Shown one piece after another: positions 17,469 through 51,898 of a stretch of DNA of 64,000 nt (position 1 is its first letter; each line of letters opens with the position of its first letter). The stretch spans positions 56,114-120,113 of the forward strand of contig CBDCOD010000023.1 in assembly GCA_965219665.1 (NCBI GenBank). Reading direction: 5' to 3'. This stretch comes from Gammaproteobacteria bacterium. Its GTDB lineage: Bacteria > Pseudomonadota > Gammaproteobacteria > CAKMZV01. Both the position numbers and the translations under genes were made by a program. The notes beneath the pieces were generated by a model, which searched no databases, was not told the DNA's origin, and saw only the letters and a list, made by a program, of their open reading frames with translations.

Positions 17469-18008
17469 ATGTCGGCAAATTATACCTCTAATCCCTCACT
17501 GTTAAAGACCATGAAAATCAAAAAAATACTACTGATTCATCTAATTTTCGTATTCTCTCTGCTATCAGCTTGCACACAAGACAAAGGAGAGACATCCTCC
17601 AATGCAATTGAATATAGCTGGAAAGGCATACGCGGTGATACCATTACGCTGAGTGATTATCGTGGTCAATGGCTGGTACTGAACTATTGGGCAACATGGT
17701 GTCCCCCCTGTCGTGAAGAAATGCCAGAGTTAGATGCATTTCACCAACATCATAGCGCTAAAGGTGTAGCAAGTGTTATAGGAGTAAATTATGAGGAAGT
17801 TGACTCAGAAACGTTAAATACTTTTTTGGAGGAGTATTTCATTACATTTCCTATAGTAAAGATGGAAAATTTATCAGGAGTAACACCTTTCGGCAATATA
17901 GTCGGTTTACCGACAACTTTTGTACTTAATCCGCAAGGGGAATTAGTTTTTGGGCGAGCAGGTGTTATTTCCGAATCGGAATTAAATGAGATTATCAGCA
18001 AGAAATAG
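17469..18008 (+). CDS. TlpA/ResA-like thiol-disulfide oxidoreductase, probable lipoprotein
   Basis: Lipobox LLSAC and thioredoxin-fold active site WATWCPPCREEMPEL. Confidence 0.7.
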   Translation: MSANYTSNPSLLKTMKIKKILLIHLIFVFSLLSACTQDKGETSSNAIEYSWKGIRGDTITLSDYRGQWLVLNYWATWCPPCREEMPELDAFHQHHSAKGVASVIGVNYEEVDSETLNTFLEEYFITFPIVKMENLSGVTPFGNIVGLPTTFVLNPQGELVFGRAGVISESELNEIISKK

Positions 18009-18303
18009 CACACAATAAGGTGTGTTTGTGTTCAACGGTTTTTTGCATTTTTCAGTAGTTTATATTCCTTATCAAGCAGTTACATACAAATGTGTATAAG
18101 TTTGCTAGTTATTGTGTAGTTGGAGTTAGCAACACATAGATAATGAAAAACATATTTCATAAAAAAATCAAGAAAAATCAAATAAATACAGGTTTTTTTC
18201 TACTTCACTTTCTTAATATTTTATGCTATTGTATTATGTGGATAACTCTGTTCATAACTTGCAGAAACCCTATAAAAATAGGCATAACAGAACACTGGAT
18301 AAC

Positions 18304-19065
18304 TCACTGGGATTGTGAATCAAATAGGGCTCTTTGCAGCAGGTAAGGAGAAGTCCAATGCACTAAGTCATCAAAATTATTGGCTGCGATTGTATGCTGA
18401 CGATCTCGTAGCACAAAATGCTCGTCGTTATTCATACCCCATCCCAATAATGTTGCTTCACCACTGTTCTCCATAGAATGTTCATCTCCTGTTGCAGCAC
18501 TTTCACCAACAGATAGCAAAATAAAGGGGGCAGTGTTGGTTAGCTGTGTGGCTGTCCCACTGCAATCATTAGCATTGGTGCATACTATTAAGTCACCAAA
18601 CAGTTGCTCATAACTGGTTAAATTTGATAGTCGCTTCCTGTCAAGCCATAAATTGTTGTTTTCTTCGCTTATCGTGTAGCGAATAGGGCGATTCCAACTA
18701 TCTAATAAAAGGCCCTGTGCATTACGTGCACCGTTGAGAGATAGTGTTGTACTGGGTACAAAGCCGTTAGTGGTGCTGCAATTAGGGGTGGGCATTTCTT
18801 GATAGCTTTCTATGCCGCCAGTTGCAGAAGGACAGGGTAGGCGCTTGTTGGCTATTAAAAACTGTACAATCGTAGTCGCTATATTTTGCAGTTGCTGCTC
18901 TGTTTCAGCGTAATGTGTCTGCCGTTGCTGCTCTAATAGTGGCAATACCACGTGATTACTAAGCACAGCAATGATAAGCAAGACAATAGACAGTTCTAAT
19001 ATGGAAAAACCTGTTTGAAGAGTAAGAGCGTGCTGTTTGAGTGCGGTTGAGCGCTTTTGGTGCAT
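18304..19065 (-). CDS. Prepilin-type (pseudo)pilin with an unusually long leader
   Basis: N-terminal ...LQTGFSILELSIVLLIIAVL has the G|F...E5 prepilin-peptidase cleavage and methylation motif preceded by an 18-aa leader. 253 aa. Confidence 0.65.
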   Translation of the reverse strand: MHQKRSTALKQHALTLQTGFSILELSIVLLIIAVLSNHVVLPLLEQQRQTHYAETEQQLQNIATTIVQFLIANKRLPCPSATGGIESYQEMPTPNCSTTNGFVPSTTLSLNGARNAQGLLLDSWNRPIRYTISEENNNLWLDRKRLSNLTSYEQLFGDLIVCTNANDCSGTATQLTNTAPFILLSVGESAATGDEHSMENSGEATLLGWGMNNDEHFVLRDRQHTIAANNFDDLVHWTSPYLLQRALFDSQSQ

Positions 19066-19087
19066 AGTTTAAATCATAATTGCTTGT

Positions 19088-20308
19088 TTAGCAGTTTGCA
19101 AATTGCCAAAGCGTATTTAAGCAAAAATGCTGATCATTGCTTAAGTTTGCTTCTAAATAGTCCTCTACAGATATACTTGGTCGTATTTGGCTTTCTAAGC
19201 GTCTTCCTCCAAAGTGGACGCGTGCAACGTATTGGATACCGTCTATTTCTAAGCAGTTGCCGCCTAAACCACATTGTGGATAACTCTCTAACCACCAGTG
19301 ATCTTTCCACTGTACCCATAAACGACGGTGCGCTTTAACCGTTTTGCTATTGCTATCACTTATATCAATTCTTGAGCCATTGCTTAGTGTAATATTATCA
19401 CAATGTGCGTTTATTCTTGTATTATCTTGTGCCCGAAAAGGGAAACGTCCCAATTGATGACCGCTGCTAGAGCGGTAAGCAGAATTAGAGGGTAGTCTTT
19501 TTATTGTGCTAATTTTTGCTGGCAAGGGCAAACCATTGCTATTTGTTGATGATTGAGCATTTGCAAACGCTCCCAAGCAGAGTACAAGTGCTTCACCCAG
19601 TTCATCCCGTAATTGTGTGAAGCTATGCAGTGTATAAACATCTTTAAAAAGCTCCCTGCTTTTAATTAAATGCACTGAATAACTACTGGTGCTAAGCTCT
19701 AATGGTTGTTGGTTATCTGCTGGTATAACCAGATTAGGTAAGAAACTGCCAACCGTATGATCTGCTCTACAAGGCGTATTATCCCCACGCTGTTTACGCT
19801 TTAAGTTACTGGCATTAGTAGCAACAACTGCCGCTATGCCTGTATTTCCACGGTAGTGTATACGCTCTATCACATCAGCATTATGCAGAGTGTTAGCAGT
19901 TGCCAAGTTAGTCCGTGCATTGTTTGGGACAATATACCAATAGCACTCACCTTGGGCATCAAAAAGAGGCTGCATGCCAATTGAGTACCATGGGATGCGT
20001 GTGACAGACCAATTTGTATTTGCACCTGTGCAATATGATCTTCCGTCCCCTTGATTATTTGAGCCATCACCGCACGGCAAAAAACCATATAAGCCAGTAA
20101 AAGGGTTGTTTGATCTAGAAGTCCTGAGGTGATACGTTCTGGCATAAGAGACTAAATGCCGCGCTATTTTGTGCAATTGGTGGGCATTATGTTGTTTTTT
20201 TTTGTTTTGCAATGGTAAAAGAGAAAGTGATGAGATAGCAATTACTGATAACAGTAAACTCATTACCAAAAATCCTTTTTGATTGCCGTAGTATCTGTAT
20301 TCATTCAT
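19088..20308 (-). CDS. GspK/PilX-like large minor pseudopilin (no Glu+5)
   Basis: N-terminal QKGFLVMSLLLSVIAISSL is a prepilin-like hydrophobic helix lacking E5. Cysteine-rich, 406 aa, adjacent to the pseudopilin gene. Confidence 0.4.
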   Translation of the reverse strand: MNEYRYYGNQKGFLVMSLLLSVIAISSLSLLPLQNKKKQHNAHQLHKIARHLVSYARTYHLRTSRSNNPFTGLYGFLPCGDGSNNQGDGRSYCTGANTNWSVTRIPWYSIGMQPLFDAQGECYWYIVPNNARTNLATANTLHNADVIERIHYRGNTGIAAVVATNASNLKRKQRGDNTPCRADHTVGSFLPNLVIPADNQQPLELSTSSYSVHLIKSRELFKDVYTLHSFTQLRDELGEALVLCLGAFANAQSSTNSNGLPLPAKISTIKRLPSNSAYRSSSGHQLGRFPFRAQDNTRINAHCDNITLSNGSRIDISDSNSKTVKAHRRLWVQWKDHWWLESYPQCGLGGNCLEIDGIQYVARVHFGGRRLESQIRPSISVEDYLEANLSNDQHFCLNTLWQFANC

Positions 20309-20612
20309 GATACTCTATCCATTTGTTTTTTTTCCATTTCCATATACTTCCGTTAACTCTAATTACGCCATGTATTGGGCTTTTATCATTAAGAATAGTA
20401 GTCGAAGGACTGGAGAGTAAGGGGCGATCGACAGCCTCTTTTGTTTGTTTTGTCGTTGTGATTGTTTTTTGTTCTAAATGTTGGCTAACTTGCTTGAATA
20501 ATTGTTGAAAAGGTTGACTTTCAACTGCCAAGGAATCTGTAGTCGTATTTGCTGTTATCAGCAGTAAGGCTCCATGCAAAAAAGGCGATAGAGTAGGGCG
20601 AGTTATCTTCAT
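20301..20612 (-). CDS. Small periplasmic protein, possible PilP/GspC-like secretin-interacting component
   Basis: Signal peptide, then Thr-rich linker and a short beta-rich C-terminus. The call rests mainly on position within the cluster. Confidence 0.3.
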   Translation of the reverse strand: MKITRPTLSPFLHGALLLITANTTTDSLAVESQPFQQLFKQVSQHLEQKTITTTKQTKEAVDRPLLSSPSTTILNDKSPIHGVIRVNGSIWKWKKNKWIEYHE

Positions 20613-20619
20613 AAATCAG

Positions 20620-21024
20620 TCAGTGGTATGTTAGTTCACAATTGGCATTGAGCGCCGCCGGTTCTTTACGCGATACAAATAAACGGCACATATTTAATTT
20701 CAATAAATGCTTGGAGTTAATGAGCTCAGATGCTGCTGTCCAGTATTGGTGCCATGCATGTTCGTTAATTGCAATAAAAGAAAGGGTTACTTTTTTATTA
20801 TGCCGCTCCCGCTTCAATTGCAGGGCAAGCTCATTTTTATGTGCAAGCCTTTGGAGATCATCTAACTGCTTATATAACTCTTGCAAATTAGTTTTTTGTG
20901 GCAATTTTGGACTGATTGGCCTGATGATGGGCTTATCGTTTATAGCATTATGACGCTCAAAATATATAAAATACATCATTGTGCAAATGCATAGACCCAA
21001 TAGTAATGACAGTACGCTATACAT
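20620..21024 (-). CDS. Bitopic membrane protein, possible GspM/PilO-like assembly component
   Basis: N-terminal TM helix followed by a predicted coiled-coil periplasmic region. Position only. Confidence 0.3.
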   Translation of the reverse strand: MYSVLSLLLGLCICTMMYFIYFERHNAINDKPIIRPISPKLPQKTNLQELYKQLDDLQRLAHKNELALQLKRERHNKKVTLSFIAINEHAWHQYWTAASELINSKHLLKLNMCRLFVSRKEPAALNANCELTYH

Positions 21025-21028
21025 ATTT

Positions 21029-21835
21029 CTACCCTTTTGCTTGAAGATTGATTTGTAAAAAAGCGTTTTTTTTGCCTAAATAATCAATAAATAGGGGAGG
21101 ATCAGGAACGAAATATTGCTGCGTAAGCGCAATATGCAATCGATTCCAATCACCAGCTTGCTGACTAAGCGTTTTATCTGCACTAGCCCACTGCAGCTGT
21201 AGCTCCATTTGTTTACCCTTCCATATAAAAGCATGTACTGAAATAGATGGAAATTCATCCAAAATACGCGCTAATTGTCGTATGTGTTTTGTATAGTCCT
21301 TGGGAGTGTAAACGGAAGGAGTTGCAGTTAGAAGTGGGGCAATATGGGCTGAGGATAGAGGCTCTTGCAGAGGTTGAGTATTGATGTAAGTATGCCACTG
21401 ATTTGCACAAAGCCCACTTAGAAAACATAGTAAACCCATCAAGATATAGCAAGCATATCTCATAGTCACGGAAATATTGCTTGTGTCAAAAAGAAATTTT
21501 TTTGAAGGCATAGTGTGCTGCTGTACCAGGTGTTGGTGCTTCTGATTTCGCTGAACCGGTTTAATCGCTAACAACCCCTGTTCATCGGACTCTACTAAGT
21601 ACAAACAATACGGGCTGAAAACACAAGCACTTGAACCATGGATTTGTATACCCATAGCCCAACTAGATACTCTAAGATGCTTAGCTTGTTGCAATTTGCT
21701 TGCCAAGCAGCCTGCAAAAGACCAGCCATGCAGTCTGTGCCAACTGTGTTGAAGATTATCTAAAATGAGAATACCGCTTGGCGGCAGCACACTGTTCGCC
21801 TTGATTTGATGACAAAAATATGTTTTGATGCTCAT
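21029..21835 (-). CDS. Bitopic protein with cytoplasmic N-domain, possible reduced GspL / PilM-N-like component
   Basis: Cytoplasmic domain of about 120 aa, a central TM (MRYACYILMGLLCFLSGLCA) and a periplasmic domain of about 130 aa. The gene overlaps the gspF-like gene, and the ORF start is uncertain. Confidence 0.3.
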   Translation of the reverse strand: MSIKTYFCHQIKANSVLPPSGILILDNLQHSWHRLHGWSFAGCLASKLQQAKHLRVSSWAMGIQIHGSSACVFSPYCLYLVESDEQGLLAIKPVQRNQKHQHLVQQHTMPSKKFLFDTSNISVTMRYACYILMGLLCFLSGLCANQWHTYINTQPLQEPLSSAHIAPLLTATPSVYTPKDYTKHIRQLARILDEFPSISVHAFIWKGKQMELQLQWASADKTLSQQAGDWNRLHIALTQQYFVPDPPLFIDYLGKKNAFLQINLQAKG

Positions 21836-22851
21836 AGCTGATACAAGGGCAGAAGAAAGGTAATAATAAATAGCAATACAAACATGGCAGATATCATGGT
21901 TAATACTGGCTCAACTAAGGGCTCTAACTGCTCTAAGTTGGTATGAACTCGTTGTTCAAAAAGTTGAGCCAATTTTTCCCAAAATAGCGACTGTTTTTGG
22001 GCGGAGTAAAAGGCAGCTGTATAGCGTGTTATTTCCTTGGGCACATCAGAATTCCCTAATATAGCAATAAAATCCTCTCCATTTAGCATACGCTGGCGAA
22101 CTTCTAACCATAATTTACGCTTCTTGGTAGACTTGATAGTGTGGCAAGCAAAATATAGCTGTTTATCCAATTGCATGCTCGTATGTTGCAGTAAACTCAT
22201 GTATCTAAAAAAACGAGCCATTTCAATATTGCTTATCAGGCCCTTGGGGTTAGTGTAAGATACTAGCCATTTAGCACTGTTTATTAGCTTGTGTCGCATA
22301 TGAAAGGTAAGAGCTATAAGTAAAAGGAGAGCAAACACTGCATATTGCAGATTGCTGCTTACCCAGTATGCCATTTGTAAAGCAAAACCAGGTTCTGGTA
22401 TAGCGACTTGTAGGGTAGGTGCTAGCAATAATATTGCAGCCATTAAAGCACAGCTAATTAAACAGAGAACTATTATGGGGTAACGTGCTATCTGCTTAAT
22501 CCGGTTTGTCCACCGTTGCTGCCATTTTAGCCATTTTGCCCATTGCTCAAAATGCGCTGCTAAGGTACCATCTAATTCGCCACTTCTACATAGTTGAATC
22601 AATCCAGGGTCATTGAACCATTGGGTTAGACTTAATGCCTGAGAGAAATCCTGACCGCTAAATAAGCGCTGCTCTATGTTCTGCAATTCTTTCTTCCAAG
22701 CATTATTTTGTATATTGGCGCACACCATAGTCACAGAAGTCATTGGAGTGAGCCCTTGTTTAAGCAGTAAGGCTGTTTCTTCACAAAAAAACAATTGAAA
22801 TTTTGCTTTGTTATGCGGATTTGGTGCGTGCTGAGTGAGTGCTTTAAGCAT
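21832..22851 (-). CDS. GspF/PilC-family inner-membrane platform protein (shortened)
   Basis: T2SSF-like cytoplasmic repeats, three TM segments and the hallmark C-terminal ...LLPLYQL ending. 339 aa against roughly 400 for typical GspF. Confidence 0.7.
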   Translation of the reverse strand: MLKALTQHAPNPHNKAKFQLFFCEETALLLKQGLTPMTSVTMVCANIQNNAWKKELQNIEQRLFSGQDFSQALSLTQWFNDPGLIQLCRSGELDGTLAAHFEQWAKWLKWQQRWTNRIKQIARYPIIVLCLISCALMAAILLLAPTLQVAIPEPGFALQMAYWVSSNLQYAVFALLLLIALTFHMRHKLINSAKWLVSYTNPKGLISNIEMARFFRYMSLLQHTSMQLDKQLYFACHTIKSTKKRKLWLEVRQRMLNGEDFIAILGNSDVPKEITRYTAAFYSAQKQSLFWEKLAQLFEQRVHTNLEQLEPLVEPVLTMISAMFVLLFIITFLLPLYQL

Positions 22852-24403
22852 TTATATCCCCCCCGAATACCCTATCTACCTCAGTTTGAGTGGTGCACTC
22901 TGATAGCACTAAATCTTGTGCAGAATCATGGAGACGCTTGCTCCATGTCAGATCACTCAATTGTGTAGAATGGTGGATATTGTGTGCCATCTCTAACACC
23001 AATACCCTACCATCGTAACCACTTTCAGCGCATTGAGAGCAACCTTTTGATTTACAAACAGTACATGCTTTGCGCAGCAAGCGTTGTGCAATGCACGCAA
23101 GAGATTGTTCAATAAGCACCTTACTATCTACCCCTAAACTTTGCATGCGGTGATAAATGCCTTCAACATCTCCTGCATGCACTGTTGCCAACACTAAATG
23201 GCCTGTCATGCTAGACTTTAAAGCCAATTCAGCTGTTTTAGCATCCCGAATTTCACCTAGCAAAATGACGTCAGGATCTTGTCTTAAAACTGCTTTAAGG
23301 ACATTGTAAAAATCCATACCATATTCAGAGCGCACGTTTATTTGCCTAATGCCTGTCTGACGGTACTCAACTGGATCTTCTAAAGTAATGATATTAAGCT
23401 GTTCATAGTCTAACAAATTAAGTAGGGTATATAAGGTCGTGCTTTTACCGCTACCGGTAGGTCCTGCAATTAAAACGAGCCCAGAGGGTTGTCGCATTAC
23501 GTTAGTAAGTGCTTGTTGTGTGATTGGCGGTAACTGCATATCTTGCAAGTCCAATTTATGGGAATTTGATAGAAAGCGAAGTACAAGATGTTCTCCCGCA
23601 ATGCCTGGCAACAGTGAGAGTCGCACATCAGTATCTGTATCCCCATACTGGAATGAGAAGCGTCCTTCTTGAATGGTATGAATTGATGTACTATCTACAT
23701 TTGCCATGATTTTATAGCGGATACAGAGTGCCTTCCATAAATGGAGATGCATATAGTGCATAGAGCGCAAAACTCCATCAATTCGATAACGAATCAGGCA
23801 GGCATGTTGTTGTGGATCACAGTGTATGTCAGAGGTCTTAAGCATTATTGCCTCATGCAGTAATGCGTAAGCAAGGCGCACAACTAAGTGCTGTTCCTCC
23901 TGTATCACGTTGCGAAGTTGATGCGGATCAGAGCTAATCGTACATAATATAGTGCTTACTTGGTTGTCATTTTGCAGTTGTTTTAGATAGTTTTGAAACT
24001 GCGAGTAGTACACCCAGCTCGTTTTTATGGGATGGGCAAAGTTGATTTTTTCCAATAAGATGTGTAGTGCCTGATCGGCATAAGGTGCCGCCATCGCAAC
24101 AATTAAATGTCCTTCAGGATCAACATATAGTGGTAGTATCAAGTTATTTTTAATCCAGGCTATACCCAGGATATCAGCCCAATCGGGTTGTATGGCAATT
24201 GCATCCTCTGCTTCTAAATACTCCATAGCATAATTCCTGCTAATATAAGCACTCCATTTAGAATGCTCCAGCCAGTTCGCCTTTAGTATAAATTTGACAG
24301 GGTCGTCCTCGGTTAAATTTGCTTGATAAAGTGCAATTTCATATTGAGTTGCTGTTATAACACCCTGATCCAGCAAAGAGGATAATAAGCTATAGTTAGG
24401 CAT
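22844..24403 (-). CDS. GspE/PilB-family secretion ATPase
   Basis: Walker A GPTGSGKSTT, Walker B DPDVILLGEIRD, His box ATVHAGD and a tetracysteine zinc motif CTVCKSKGCSQC. An N1E-like N-terminal domain is present. Confidence 0.9.
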   Translation of the reverse strand: MPNYSLLSSLLDQGVITATQYEIALYQANLTEDDPVKFILKANWLEHSKWSAYISRNYAMEYLEAEDAIAIQPDWADILGIAWIKNNLILPLYVDPEGHLIVAMAAPYADQALHILLEKINFAHPIKTSWVYYSQFQNYLKQLQNDNQVSTILCTISSDPHQLRNVIQEEQHLVVRLAYALLHEAIMLKTSDIHCDPQQHACLIRYRIDGVLRSMHYMHLHLWKALCIRYKIMANVDSTSIHTIQEGRFSFQYGDTDTDVRLSLLPGIAGEHLVLRFLSNSHKLDLQDMQLPPITQQALTNVMRQPSGLVLIAGPTGSGKSTTLYTLLNLLDYEQLNIITLEDPVEYRQTGIRQINVRSEYGMDFYNVLKAVLRQDPDVILLGEIRDAKTAELALKSSMTGHLVLATVHAGDVEGIYHRMQSLGVDSKVLIEQSLACIAQRLLRKACTVCKSKGCSQCAESGYDGRVLVLEMAHNIHHSTQLSDLTWSKRLHDSAQDLVLSECTTQTEVDRVFGGDINA

Positions 24404-24561
24404 ACATTCTTATCCATTCATACGAAAACCATCCTATAAAAAGCAGAGTAATACTGCTAATAGTAAGCATGGCAATTTCTATCATCATGCGTTGACGATA
24501 CTTGGGAGATGTTGGAAAGAGTTTAGGGTTGGTAGAAGGAAGCCAAGACAGTTTCATTTTC

Positions 24562-26013
24562 TTATATTTCTAAAACGGTTGGACGAATGAAAATAACCAA
24601 CTCGGTGTTACGTTTGCCATTTTGCTTATTTCCTAAGGATTGCAAATAAGGTAAATAGGATTTTTGATCTTGTGTGCTCTGCTGTATAAGTCCTGCAATA
24701 ATGGCTATTTCACCCGACTTTACTCTTAAAACAGATTCTAATTCTCTCTCCTGTATTATCGGTATTTCTGAAACAACACCACGATCTGCAAGCAGCGGGT
24801 GAGGGTCTCTTACCACACCAGACATCCGAGATAGTATAGGGCGAATATTTAATGTAACCATACCACTGTGTTCGATAAAAGGGGTAAGTGATAAAATCAA
24901 ACCGACTGGTATAGTATTGGCTTTTGTATTGAAGTTAGTAACAGATGTATTTTGATTTAAAGAAGTTATTGAGTCGATAGTGAAATACACCAAGTTATCA
25001 ACCACTTTAAGTACTGCTGTTTGATTATTGATAACTTGCAATTGAGGTGAAGAAAGCACTTTGCTGCTACCGAATTGGTTAAACCAGCTAATCTGCGTGC
25101 TTAAATCAGCATTGGGTGCATTGATGAAGGTGTTTAATTGACCAGAAATTGATGGTATAACAGGCGTGTTCTGAGATAACGTATTATTCCCTAATACTGC
25201 ATTCCACTGTATTCCTTGTTGATTATCCTCACTAAGTTCAATTTCAATAATTGCAACATCTAAAATAACTTGACGCTTTTGTGTAGCAACGATCTGGCTA
25301 ATATACTGATCAAGTTGGATATGCATGTATTGAGAAGCCAATGCTGTAATCAGTCCTGCTTCAGGATTGACAATCACAGACTCCTTGTTCCCTACTAAAC
25401 GCTCAGTATTGCGTTGTATATCTTCCCAAAATTGATGCTTGAATTGATTATGAATTTCTGTTCCTGCTTTTTTTGTATTCAAAGCTGAGTTAATGTTTTG
25501 GTTAAAGGACAGTGCAGAGGCACTTTGCCTCTGCATATTAAGGATAGGAATGCTATGGCTTTTCCAGTAAGGTGCATTGCTTAAAAACACCACACTATCG
25601 TTGTTAAATTCTGCACGCATATCTATTTGTGCTGCTACCTGATTGAATAATGTACTGAGCGCTACTTTTTTGCCTTGATAGTTAATGGCTTTATCACTCT
25701 GTATAGCTATAGAATAGTTAAAAGACAACCTCTGACTTAAGCCAGTTAATAATGTAGTTAACGGCATATTTTTAATATCTAAATCAACCGTTTCTTGCCA
25801 AATATCATACTGAATCATTGCGCTTTTTTCTGTGTGCGCTTGTGGCTTAGATTGCGCAATAAAGTTATATATGTGAGGCGAGGGTGAAAATACGGGATGA
25901 CGTGTTGCCGTAGTGCCTTCTTCACTACTTTTCTCTTTTTGAGAAGTGCTACATGCTGATAATGCTAAAAACATAACAGCAACCCCTTTTTTTATCCGGA
26001 TACACGTTGCCAT
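24562..26013 (-). CDS. Secretin (GspD/PilQ family), probable lipoprotein
   Basis: C-terminal secretin domain ending ...VPYLQSLGNKQNGKRNTELVIFIRPTVLEI. The ORF-track start is 26055; the start at 26013 (MATCIRIKKGVAVMFLALSAC) gives a signal peptide plus an LSAC lipobox. Confidence 0.8.
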   Translation of the reverse strand: MATCIRIKKGVAVMFLALSACSTSQKEKSSEEGTTATRHPVFSPSPHIYNFIAQSKPQAHTEKSAMIQYDIWQETVDLDIKNMPLTTLLTGLSQRLSFNYSIAIQSDKAINYQGKKVALSTLFNQVAAQIDMRAEFNNDSVVFLSNAPYWKSHSIPILNMQRQSASALSFNQNINSALNTKKAGTEIHNQFKHQFWEDIQRNTERLVGNKESVIVNPEAGLITALASQYMHIQLDQYISQIVATQKRQVILDVAIIEIELSEDNQQGIQWNAVLGNNTLSQNTPVIPSISGQLNTFINAPNADLSTQISWFNQFGSSKVLSSPQLQVINNQTAVLKVVDNLVYFTIDSITSLNQNTSVTNFNTKANTIPVGLILSLTPFIEHSGMVTLNIRPILSRMSGVVRDPHPLLADRGVVSEIPIIQERELESVLRVKSGEIAIIAGLIQQSTQDQKSYLPYLQSLGNKQNGKRNTELVIFIRPTVLEI

Positions 26014-27155
26014 TGATTGCCCCCAATAGATTCGACCACTCCCGTTAATTCCCACTCTAATAATTTGCTTTGAGTGCTCGGAAAGTCATAATTGTTTAAC
26101 TCTAATAATTGCTCGAATGACCATACATCAAAGCCCATTAGTGACAAGAGTGCATCGCTTGTTTCATCAAATTGCGTTGCAGACGCTTGCTGCGTGGCAT
26201 GTTCAAGATCTATAACACGTAGAATATCATTCGCGCAAGTAAGCAGATGTGCTCCTTGTTGGATAATTTTATGACAGCCTGCGCTTACTGGAGAAAGGGT
26301 ACTGCCAGGTAGTGCAAATACTTCTCTCCCTTGCTCTAAGGCTTGTGTTGCTGTGATGAGTGTGCCACTTTTCACTGCTGCTTCAATCACGACTGTTGCC
26401 AGTGAAATGCCACTAATAATGCGATTGCGCGGTGGAAAATTGGCAGAATTCGGGGGAGTAGATAGAGGCACCTCACTAACCAGCGCACCGCCATTTTCTA
26501 ATATAGAGTCAGCTAGTTTGATATGCTGTTTGGGGTAGAGAATGTTGACGCCTGTCCCAAGAATAGCTATTGATGGGGCAGATGTACTCAAGGTGGCTTG
26601 ATGCGCGATGCCATCAATGCCCAGCGCCAATCCACTACAAATCACCCATCCTTTGTTGGCTAATTCCGTAGCTATTTCATGTGCAGAACGCGTTCCCTGT
26701 GCTGTTGGTTTTCGAGTACCTACTATTGAAACCGCATTTTGCTGCAGGCACTCTAATGAACCTCTAACATACAAAACTGGAGGTGGGTCATAGATAGTTT
26801 TAAGCAAAGAGGGGTAATTACTATTATTAAATTCAAGCAAGTGAATTTTTTCTTGTTTGCATTTTTCCAGAGTTAGCTCTATTTTGGAGGCTGCTTGCAG
26901 CCATTTACTGAATAGTCGAGAGTTGTGCTTTTCTAGCCAGAGTGCAAACACATCATGACAGAAAGTGGGTTTTTTCTGCAAATACTGACCAAAGGAGCGG
27001 CTTCCTAATCCTTGGGTTAGCGACCACTGCAAACAAAAATAATCATTCCTATGATTACGCGCAGTAGTGCTTTCAATTTGCTCGTGTTTCATACCGCGCA
27101 CTATAAAAACAATGCATGGACAATCTTGTGGGTCAGTGCTATATAAAATAGACAA
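25992..27155 (-). CDS. dprA: DNA processing protein DprA (Smf)
   Basis: Rossmann-like DprA core: VSIVGTRKPT, LALGIDGIAHQATL, ILGTGVNILYP, FPPRNRIISGIS, KSGTLITATQALEQGREVFALPG. Confidence 0.9.
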   Translation of the reverse strand: MSILYSTDPQDCPCIVFIVRGMKHEQIESTTARNHRNDYFCLQWSLTQGLGSRSFGQYLQKKPTFCHDVFALWLEKHNSRLFSKWLQAASKIELTLEKCKQEKIHLLEFNNSNYPSLLKTIYDPPPVLYVRGSLECLQQNAVSIVGTRKPTAQGTRSAHEIATELANKGWVICSGLALGIDGIAHQATLSTSAPSIAILGTGVNILYPKQHIKLADSILENGGALVSEVPLSTPPNSANFPPRNRIISGISLATVVIEAAVKSGTLITATQALEQGREVFALPGSTLSPVSAGCHKIIQQGAHLLTCANDILRVIDLEHATQQASATQFDETSDALLSLMGFDVWSFEQLLELNNYDFPSTQSKLLEWELTGVVESIGGNQWQRVSG

Positions 27156-27347
27156 TTTGGAATAGTATGGTAGTTTTAGAGTATGCTATAGGCCTGACCA
27201 TAGCCTAAAAGCGACTTTCCCTAGCAAAGACTATGCGATAATATAGGGCAGGGCGTATTAATGTGCTTTCTCTACATCATATTCTGGAAATAAATATTAA
27301 ACGTCACAGATAAGACCTTTCGCCTGTGCCTTAGGAGCCAGTCATTC

Positions 27348-27821
27348 ATGAATAAAAAAAATCTCAGTGATTCTGCTGCATCGTTTGCAACGGGTATTTG
27401 TATATTAAGCAGCCAGCAAGCAGGTTATGAGACACCTTTTGGTATGACTATTAATACTTTTGTGTCACTGTCTTTTGTTCCCCCGCTTATTGGATTCGCA
27501 TTGGTAAATAATTGCAAAATGCGCCAAGAATTACAGGTAAACAGCGTTATCGGTCTTTCCATTTTGGCCGAAAATCAAGAGCGGCTAAGCCATTGGTTTG
27601 CAAACCTAACACAAGAGCAACCGCCATTGCAGTGGAATTATGAATTATCTGTGCCCCTAATAGAGGAAAGTGCGGCTTGGTACGCAGCGACTATCTATCA
27701 GATGTATCCAGCAGGTGACCATCAGTTTTATGTGGCAAAAGTAAGTGCAACTCGTGCTTTCTCCCGCGCACCGCTGCTATACTTCAATCGCAAATATCGT
27801 CAGCTTAAACCCAGTAATTAA
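27348..27821 (+). CDS. Flavin reductase-like (HpaC/RutF family) protein
   Basis: FMN-binding split-barrel motifs FGMTINTFVSLSFVPPLIGF and AGDHQFYVAKV. Confidence 0.65.
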   Translation: MNKKNLSDSAASFATGICILSSQQAGYETPFGMTINTFVSLSFVPPLIGFALVNNCKMRQELQVNSVIGLSILAENQERLSHWFANLTQEQPPLQWNYELSVPLIEESAAWYAATIYQMYPAGDHQFYVAKVSATRAFSRAPLLYFNRKYRQLKPSN

Positions 27822-50337: not shown

Positions 50338-51510
50338 ATGACAACAGTTGGCATTGACTCTATAGCACTATATACTCCTTCTTTTTATATGGACTTGGCA
50401 GAACTTGCAACAGTGCATAATTGCCCTAAAGATAAATATTATTCAGGCATAGGACAAGAGCGCATGAGCGTCCTACCTCCAGATGAAGATGCGGTAACTT
50501 TGGCCGCAAATGCTGCAAACATAACACTTTGCGGTGAAGACCTGAGTAAAATAAAGGCGGTGCTGTTTGCAACTGAAACAAGTGTTGACCAATCAAAATC
50601 TGCAGGCGTTTTCCTACACCAACTCCTCAATTTGCCAGATGATTGCCGCATTATTGAAATGAAACAGGCTTGCTATAGTAGCACATTTGCCTTGCAAACT
50701 GCCCGTATGATGGTACAAGCCAATCCCGAAAGCAAAGTGCTCGTTATTGGATCTGATAATGCGCGTTACACGCTAAATACTCCTGGAGAAGCCACTCAAG
50801 GATGTGGGGCCGTTGCTATGCTGGTTAGCAGTGATCCGCGTATTTTACAACTCAATGATCAATCAGCAGTATACAGTAGCCATACTATGGATTTTTGGCG
50901 ACCTAACTACCTAAACTCAGCTATTGTAGATGGCAAATATTCTACAAAAATTTATTTATCTGCCCTTAAAGAGTGCTGGAAGCGATACCACTCTCTTTCA
51001 GGTAGGTTGCATGAGATTAGTTATCTTGTATTTCATCTTCCATTTACACGCATAGCTGAGAAGGCATTGAAAATTTTATTTAGTGGGGACAAAACCAAAT
51101 TACAGGATAGTTTAGAGCGTGCCAAATCCAGTTTAGTGTACAACCGCTTAGTCGGAAACTCCTACACAGCCTCTCTTTACATAGCGCTCTGCTCCTTGTT
51201 GGATAACACTGATACAGACCTAAGTTACGAGCAAATTGCATTGTTTAGTTATGGTTCTGGCTTTACAGCAGAGCTTTTCACAGGTACGCTGGTACAAGGC
51301 TATAAGGAGCACCTTCATGCCGAGCAGCACCGCGATATTTTACAGAAACGTAAAGCTCTAAGTTACGAAGAATATTTGCATTTTTACAATTATCAACTTC
51401 CTGAAAGTGGTGAAGAACATACCATTAAATCTTATACAAAAGGTCGTTTTAGATTAGCAGGAGTTAACAACCACAAGCGCATATATGAACAGAGTAAACA
51501 TTATGAATAA
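50338..51510 (+). CDS. mvaS: Hydroxymethylglutaryl-CoA synthase family protein
   Basis: Catalytic triad context: [10 protein letters not shown] (Cys), [21 protein letters not shown] (His), YTASLYIAL and FSYGSG match bacterial HMGS. Confidence 0.8.
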
Positions 51511-51898
51511 AACACAAAAATTACATCAAAAGCAGAAAGGATTTACGCTAATAGAAATTATGGTCGTGGTGGTCATTCTTGGTATTTTAGCTACCATTGT
51601 GGTGCCTAAAATTCTGGATAGACCTGATGAAGCACGCGTTCAAAAAGCCAGGCAAGATATCCGTGCTTTCGAAGGTGCCCTCAGTTTATACAAATTGGAT
51701 AATTTTTCTTACCCGGATACCGGAGAAGGTTTAGGAGCATTGCAAGGGCGCTATATGGAACGCATACCAAATGATCCTTGGGGAAATGAATACCAGTACA
51801 TCAGCCCAGGAACCTCCGGCAGTTACGACATCTATTCCTTCGGCGCAGATGGCACTCCTGGTGGTGATGGTGTCAATGCAGACATTGGTAACCTTTAA
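51503..51898 (+). CDS. gspG: Type II secretion major pseudopilin GspG
   Basis: [25 protein letters not shown] prepilin motif and a GspG core ([33 protein letters not shown]). The ORF track starts at an upstream Met at 51485. Confidence 0.85.

Follow-up and report, generated by a model that had tools for sequence, protein, structure and literature searches.

The stretch of DNA analysed here, referred to as the window, comprises 64 kb of contig CBDCOD010000023.1 from a Gammaproteobacteria bacterium and contains, on its minus strand, an operon in which the gene for DprA is followed by the gene for a secretin. The dprA open frame extends from 25992 to 27155 with TTG 27155 as its upstream limit, and the public annotation begins the gene at ATG 27092. 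The product contains the Pfam domains DNA_processg_A (259 bits) and DprA_WH, and belongs to the DprA family TIGR00732 with a score of 262 bits against a curated cutoff of 191. The secretin open frame occupies 24562..26055 on the same strand. The remaining genes, from a small transmembrane protein through an assembly ATPase and a platform protein to two prepilin-like proteins, would encode the type IV filament machine that the secretin serves (Table 1). The original prediction for this region was concerned with the junction of the first two genes. It proposed that the end of dprA overlaps the start of the secretin gene, implying translational coupling, and that the secretin carries a lipobox of its own, in keeping with the absence of a separate pilotin.

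Start codons at the dprA-secretin junction

The dprA gene ends at 25992, as had been predicted, with a TAA stop codon. Three in-frame start codons are available to the secretin: GTG 26055, ATG 26013 and ATG 25974. The first two were named in the original prediction and produce the overlaps given there, 64 nucleotides (nt) and 22 nt. The third had been overlooked; it is located 17 nt beyond the dprA stop, hence a start at this position does not overlap dprA. To say that the stop overlaps the start is inaccurate in that the codons themselves do not touch, since ATG 26013 precedes the first base of the TAA by 19 nt.

Each candidate was scored for a Shine-Dalgarno (SD) sequence as a duplex with the canonical anti-SD, which was assumed since the window contains no 16S gene. 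A search upstream of 26013, as the original prediction had suggested, identified a GGGGG motif that gives this start the strongest duplex of the three (-8.4 kcal/mol), followed by ATG 25974 (-7.3 kcal/mol), while GTG 26055 is close to zero (-0.1 kcal/mol). Both ATG scores rank among the top few percent of internal ATGs, of which about 3% in the window score -8 kcal/mol or better.

The public gene calls are split. Entries P0001 and P0122 are 470 residues in length and start with MFLALSAC at 25974. A third assembly of the same species supplied P0121, which has 483 residues and starts with MATC at 26013. If the 470-residue annotation is right, there is no overlap with dprA and the LSAC sequence does not serve as a signal, and the AAGGGG motif 8 nt ahead of ATG 25974 would be in agreement with it. 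The protein settles the choice, however, because a secretin must be exported and the 25974 product has seven residues with an uncharged n-region ahead of the Cys. This peptide, MFLALSA-C, is too short for any Sec signal, and the relatives all have 15–35 residues (median 20) preceding the aligned Cys. Furthermore, the SD-like sequence AAAAAAGGGG is merely the K-K-G codons of the n-region, and the same type of mis-call is observed in the homologues P0003 (MNGC), P0027 (MLAIAAC) and P0109 (MALAAC). Only ATG 26013 yields a signal peptide of normal length, with 20 residues preceding the Cys; the peptide originally quoted for this start, MATCIRIKKGVAVMFLALSAC, is the one encoded. ATG 25974 is probably not the functional start, and the reading built on it is considered improbable. 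Gene callers have thus repeatedly placed the starts of MshL-type secretins within the signal peptide, as happened for several other annotated homologues and, at this locus, for two of the three public assemblies. A mis-called start conceals the lipoprotein signal as well as any overlap with the gene upstream, and localisation predictions for such proteins will be wrong as a result.

A scan of GTDB genomes identified close relatives linked to dprA in two other lineages only, at four loci. The first is a Gammaproteobacteria metagenome-assembled genome (MAG; loci L001/L003, 46% secretin identity) and the second is a MAG labelled uncultured Thiomicrospira (loci L002/L004, 43% identity). In both, dprA is immediately upstream and the gene order is the same. 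None of about 150 other MshL loci examined had dprA in the flank, and a metagenome scan found nothing above 33% identity except partial-length matches (36–42% over about 270–360 residues). At L002, a signal peptide is obtained from ATG 9947 only, which is also the first start codon of the frame. It is found within the same ATGGCAACG (M-A-T) in the conserved DprA K/Q-W-Q-R, overlapping dprA by 19 nt, and the public call (MNGC...) is too short. At L001, the equivalent frame is closed by a stop codon and the secretin begins 6 nt past the end of dprA. The tight linkage of dprA and the secretin is conserved; the overlap itself is not.

GTG 26055 is the earliest start codon of the open frame, and its use would lengthen the signal peptide to 34 residues by way of a long n-region, with the Cys at residue 35, the farthest that the lipobox rule described below allows. 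Against this, the codon is without an SD sequence, there is no K or R among the first seven residues, L002 has no start upstream of its own MAT codon, and a 64-nt stretch of dual coding would be costly. GTG 26055 is unlikely to be used as a start, and the reading that depends on it has a very slight chance of being correct.

The other junctions of the operon range from an 8-nt overlap to a 22-nt gap, making the 22-nt overlap of dprA and the secretin an exception. A promoter and terminator scan of 17800–27600 identified no terminator-like site at the junction, where an intervening terminator would have spoken against the original prediction. No internal promoter was identified there either, and promoter-like matches were fewer than in shuffled sequences. 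Co-transcription of dprA and the secretin is well supported by these sequence analyses. Translational coupling is plausible. If ATG 26013 is used, the two genes form a co-directional overlapping pair as expected of coupled genes, and while 22 nt exceeds the common overlaps of 1 nt and 4 nt (PMC10666635, PMC12548453), coupling has been documented for overlaps as long as 38–50 nt (PMC12548453). Ribosomes completing dprA would probably aid initiation at 26013 alongside the SD-like motif that this start possesses.

A number of points weigh against this interpretation of the junction and of the lipobox discussed below. SD strength discriminates poorly here and was used as weak evidence only, given that the first ATGs of long open reading frames (ORFs) do not outscore internal ones. 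ATG 25974, a start with a good SD sequence and no overlap, is favored by two of the three public calls. The overlap is replaced by a gap at L001, and the ATG within dprA arises from a conserved Trp codon preceded by A, such that conservation of DprA accounts in part for its reappearance in L002. The L002 box, F-M-N-G-C, does not pass the strict lipobox rule and its n-region is without K or R. With respect to coupling, the efficiency drops with distance (PMC10666635), the SD-like motif of ATG 26013 weakens the case, and folding of 25950–26080 revealed no significant occluding RNA structure at the start (z = 0.01 relative to shuffles). Taken whole, the best explanation has the secretin translated from ATG 26013 as an MshL-like prolipoprotein, and from the sequence this is judged to be very probable.

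Other features of the region were considered separately. An RNA-unfolding switch at the junction was rejected since only a weak hairpin was found over the AUG, with the z-score already given. On reading the sequence, a run of seven A residues (25987–25993), which encodes K-K of the n-region, was rejected as a site of frameshifting or slippage: it lies beyond the dprA stop, and slipping by -1 out of the secretin frame soon leads to a stop codon. Inside the secretin coding region, there is a perfect 10-bp inverted repeat, TGCAGAGGCA aag TGCCTCTGCA (25513..25535, minus strand), that was flagged by the terminator scan but does not have a real T tract. A search of the whole window against Rfam returned two tRNAs only, and visual inspection of the three lineages revealed no convincing CRP-S-like motif shared upstream of dprA.

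Table 1. Coordinates of the operon genes and of the features at the dprA-secretin junction (window numbering).
Feature	Coordinates	Strand	Details and basis
dprA	25992..27092	minus	366 aa from ATG 27092; first gene of the operon; Pfam, TIGR00732, public call
dprA stop codon, TAA	25994..25992	minus	direct sequence reading
GTG, farthest-upstream in-frame start candidate	26053..26055	minus	64-nt overlap; SD duplex -0.1 kcal/mol
GGGGG, SD-like motif	26020..26024	minus	6 nt upstream of ATG 26013, within dprA coding sequence; duplex -8.4 kcal/mol
MshL-like secretin, predicted lipoprotein	24562..26013	minus	483 aa from preferred ATG 26013; Pfam, TIGR02519, homologues, AlphaFold2 model, PDB match
Predicted signal peptide and lipidated Cys, MATCIRIKKGVAVMFLALSA/C	25951..26013	minus	matches lipobox rule; Cys conserved
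Lipobox, L-S-A-C	25962..25951	minus	Cys21 codon 25953..25951
AAGGGG, SD-like motif	25988..25983	minus	8 nt upstream of ATG 25974; duplex -7.3 kcal/mol
Alternative ATG	25972..25974	minus	470-aa product MFLALSAC...; in two public annotations; 7 residues ahead of Cys
Single-pass membrane protein ORF, 53 aa, unannotated	24396..24557	minus	4 nt past secretin stop; 8-nt overlap with ATPase start
PilB/GspE/MshE-type assembly ATPase, 519 aa	22844..24403	minus	Pfam T2SSE 314 bits, weak MshEN
PilC/GspF-type platform protein, 339 aa	21832..22851	minus	Pfam T2SSF 87 bits
Three clade-specific proteins, tightly packed	20301..21835	minus	268 aa, 21029..21835; 134 aa, 20620..21024; 103 aa, 20301..20612
Prepilin-like protein, 406 aa	19088..20308	minus	leader MNEYRYYGNQKG/FLVMS; motif scan; conserved in L001/L002
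Prepilin-like protein, 253 aa	18304..19065	minus	leader ...LTLQTG/FSILE; motif scan; conserved in L001/L002

Lipobox, domain architecture and targeting of the secretin

A lipobox rule of the PS51257 type was coded in-house, requiring an R or K within the first seven residues and no charge from -10 to -5 before the Cys. Among the three candidate starts, a match was obtained from ATG 26013 only. The n-region contains R6, K8 and K9, and is followed by a nine-residue h-region, the L-S-A-C box with Cys at position 21, and Ser at +2. By this in-silico rule, the secretin possesses the signal peptidase II (SPase II) signal and lipobox Cys that define a liposecretin, and the claim of an LSAC lipobox behind a positively charged n-region is upheld. 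As a control, the rule was applied to 293 other long ORFs in related loci and matched three (approximately 1%). A six-frame scan of the window produced two convincing matches: the secretin and a TlpA-like thioredoxin.

The strict rule was passed by the secretin at 127 of 152 related loci drawn from genomes and metagenomes, and most of the loci that failed nonetheless present L-x-[AG]-C. Of the annotated homologues (n = 120), 93 passed the strict rule, and the count rose to 102 when the rule was relaxed. Cys21 is at least 90% conserved across 45 aligned MshL homologues, and in both close clade relatives the lipobox Cys falls in the same alignment position. From these comparisons, the lipobox is more than a chance occurrence. 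It is also a general and already known trait of MshL-type secretins, which the original prediction did not remark upon, and for this reason the feature is an ordinary one. The MshL protein of Shewanella, for example, is listed as a predicted outer-membrane lipoprotein (PMC3223724).

Two side observations concern lipoboxes elsewhere. At L002 (9947..10012), the box is the non-canonical L-F-M-N-G-C and the n-region has no basic residue; lipidation may therefore be non-uniform within the clade. The TlpA/AhpC-like thioredoxin of the window (17511..18008, plus strand) has an LSAC box like that of the secretin with a similar IKK n-region, MKIKKILLIHLIFVFSLLSAC; its longest ORF extends a further 14 codons upstream, to a start at 17469.

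The secretin is a member of the secretin superfamily (PF00263), scoring 94.9 bits over residues 313–481 relative to a gathering threshold of 27.5. While the MshL equivalog (TIGR02519) is its best-scoring NCBIfam family, the score of 185.4 bits is below the cutoff of 250.2, and the scores for GspD, R64 PilN, PilQ, SctC and HofQ are far lower. As classified from the sequence, the protein is MshL-like and not an MshL equivalog. An AlphaFold2 model (mean predicted local distance difference test score, pLDDT = 72.5) features an N0-like domain (aa. 70–160), an N3 domain (aa. 195–260) and a beta-rich secretin core (aa. 300–481). The low confidence region (aa. 1–67) corresponds to the signal peptide and a linker rich in Ser, Thr, Pro and Glu. 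A fold search of the model against the PDB returned known secretin structures as the top matches. The best of these was BfpB from the enteropathogenic Escherichia coli bundle-forming pilus (PDB: 9u5s, E = 5e-22, TM-score 0.42; runner-up E = 1e-14), which was also the best PDB match by sequence (E = 4.5e-16). No C-terminal, pilotin-binding S domain is present: the Secretin domain reaches residue 481 in a protein of 483, and the model ends at the last strand of the barrel. In this respect as well, the protein conforms to a liposecretin.

With a start at ATG 26013, the secretin would be exported by Sec along the standard lipoprotein route. Lgt would attach a diacylglycerol to Cys21, SPase II would cut between Ala20 and Cys21, Lnt would N-acylate the Cys, and the Ser at +2 would allow delivery to the outer membrane by Lol. 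A predicted disordered linker of approximately 45 residues (aa. 22–67) would tether the N0-N3-secretin domains to the lipid anchor, and the tethered domains would oligomerise, giving a type IV filament machine its pore. The linker (window about 25813..25950) is predicted to be disordered, yet H39 and P58 are nearly invariant across MshL homologues. By analogy, this hints at a binding role for the linker resembling that of the BfpB LG domain.

The same start could instead be followed by cleavage with signal peptidase I (SPase I), or by no cleavage at all, leaving an unlipidated secretin in need of a targeting factor encoded elsewhere. Lipidation in this clade is a prediction from sequence alone, L002 has its non-canonical F-M-N-G-C box, and pilotin genes can be located outside of an operon. 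On the other hand, the Cys is conserved across the family precisely where the h-region ends, a Leu at -3 is characteristic of SPase II rather than SPase I sites, and there is no S domain available for a pilotin to bind. In addition, BfpB, as the closest solved relative, is an acylated lipoprotein (PMC12531336). An unlipidated form is thus regarded as very unlikely, and the lipidated form is preferred.

A lipobox scan found no gene for a pilotin-like lipoprotein in the operon or in the rest of the window, where the thioredoxin is the only other protein with a credible lipobox; this is in agreement with the absence originally reported. Taken with the missing S domain and the lipidation of BfpB, independence of the secretin from a pilotin fits the evidence gathered from the sequence and the model. 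The lipid anchor would take the place of targeting by pilotin and S domain, as it does for HxcQ and BfpB. Pilotins are dispensable for lipoprotein secretins (PMC4471445, PMC3542185, PMC12531336), and Berry and Pelicic describe acylated secretins without a need for a pilotin for type IV filament systems in general (PMC4471445). In BfpB, acylation removes the pilotin requirement, the S domain is absent, and an N-terminal segment links the anchor to N0; BfpB still requires BfpG, a periplasmic partner that is not a lipoprotein (PMC12531336). The small proteins of unassigned role in the present operon could act as a partner of the BfpG kind.

The remaining genes of the operon

The first gene after the secretin is an unannotated ORF of 53 residues with a basic N-terminus and one transmembrane helix. 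No identical sequence is present in the public protein collection. Positional equivalents are located at L001 (11452..11601, 49 aa), L002 (11419..11616, 65 aa) and L005 (4332..4601, 89 aa). In all four loci, the small ORF overlaps the ATPase start codon and begins at most 4 nt from, or overlapping, the secretin stop. The L005 locus (36% secretin identity) shares the order of secretin, small transmembrane ORF and ATPase, and is without dprA. The ATPase that follows scored 320 bits with the NCBIfam PilB family and 314 bits with GspE, each below its own cutoff.

Past the platform gene, the 268-, 134- and 103-residue proteins had no matches in Pfam, NCBIfam or the PDB. The first two match L001/L002 only and the third matches nothing. 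PDB sequence searches with the five unknown proteins of the operon gave chance-level matches only. By inference, the 268-, 134- and 103-residue proteins may be components of an alignment complex. Of the two prepilin-like proteins, the 253-residue protein contains the N-methylation domain TIGR02532 (21 bits against a cutoff of 16.3) and a weak match to GspG. The public call for the 406-residue protein, P0126 (391 aa), starts at Met16 and cuts off the prepilin-like leader; it is a probable second start mis-call in the same operon. A word-indexed search with the 406-residue protein retrieved only itself, while an exhaustive search identified a family of 587 representatives (E ≤ 1e-3), four of them close, and ten relatives that were tested had no NCBIfam name. 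Apart from these distant relatives, the genes of the operon beyond its MshL-, MshE- and MshG-like ones have relatives within the clade only or no match.

The operon does not encode a small major pilin. Elsewhere in the window, an orphan gene for a GspG-type major pseudopilin (51485..51898, plus strand; Pfam T2SSG 109 bits, N_methyl 41 bits) stands by itself, flanked by a gene resembling HMG-CoA synthase and by the acetolactate synthase genes. Since the operon is lacking in this component, the orphan gene could supply it.

A possible role in DNA uptake and comparison with known systems

The lipobox and the absence of a pilotin are not new biology. It is the dprA-led operon and the unannotated small ORF that merit attention. 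The gene order of dprA, liposecretin, transmembrane protein, ATPase, platform protein, three orphans and two prepilin-like proteins is conserved in three gammaproteobacterial lineages, two of which are represented by MAGs with genomes of approximately 2 Mb. Because dprA heads the operon in all three, a role in DNA uptake is a reasonable hypothesis. A literature search produced nothing that joins dprA and mshL in one operon. It is possible but doubtful that the operon encodes a type IV filament machine of a kind not described before, a streamlined derivative of MSH systems devoted to taking up DNA for natural transformation. If true, the cytoplasmic DprA protein would be co-expressed, and perhaps translationally coupled, with an outer-membrane pore. 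With this in mind, a dprA-headed operon with an MshL-like liposecretin in a small clade may serve as a testable pointer to DNA uptake, carried out by a divergent machine resembling a pilus, among uncultured bacteria whose genomes are small.

Among known systems, the family that matches best is MshL of the MSHA-type pili (TIGR02519), with which the secretin shares a lipobox at the same aligned Cys, the linker, the N0 and N3 domains and the secretin domain. As in MSHA loci, an MshE-like ATPase and an MshG-like platform protein are encoded downstream. In contrast, the secretin is 483 residues in length while most homologues have 535–631, and identity to typical MshL proteins is in the range of 30–36% only. 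Unlike MSHA loci, there is no mshM or mshN, and in place of mshI/J/K upstream are found dprA upstream and the small transmembrane ORF downstream. The three clade-specific proteins after the platform gene also set the operon apart from other MshL loci. While MshE-, MshG- and MshL-like genes are present, the operon has neither an MshM-like (ExeA-type AAA) protein nor MshN, and thus falls outside the definition of an MSH system (Denise et al. 2019, PMC6668835).

The type IVb pili offer a second comparison in BfpB (by extension also TcpC), which likewise has an N-terminal lipid signal, here a predicted one, and no S domain. Sequence identity to BfpB is approximately 16%, however, and the present operon is not of the type IVb kind. 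BfpB has an LG domain that binds BfpG, whereas the corresponding linker is predicted to be disordered and no recognisable BfpG homologue was found here.

HxcQ of the Pseudomonas aeruginosa Hxc type II secretion system is cited in PMC3542185 as a self-piloted liposecretin (Viarre et al. 2009). By this description, the likeness is an N-terminal lipid anchor of its own, with HxcQ reaching the outer membrane by Lol without a pilotin. HxcQ differs in being a GspD-type secretin for protein secretion; the GspD model scored 90 bits with the secretin studied here relative to a cutoff of 351.

Finally, the secretins PilQ, HofQ and ComE of competence systems and type IVa pili likewise provide type IV filament machines with their outer-membrane pore, and given the linkage to dprA, a role in DNA uptake may be shared. 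Secretins of this type are generally aided by PilF/PilW lipoproteins (PMC4471445), and no PilF/PilW-type gene was found in the window. The secretin described here matches PilQ (43 bits) and HofQ (23.5 bits) weakly, both scores being far under the cutoff.

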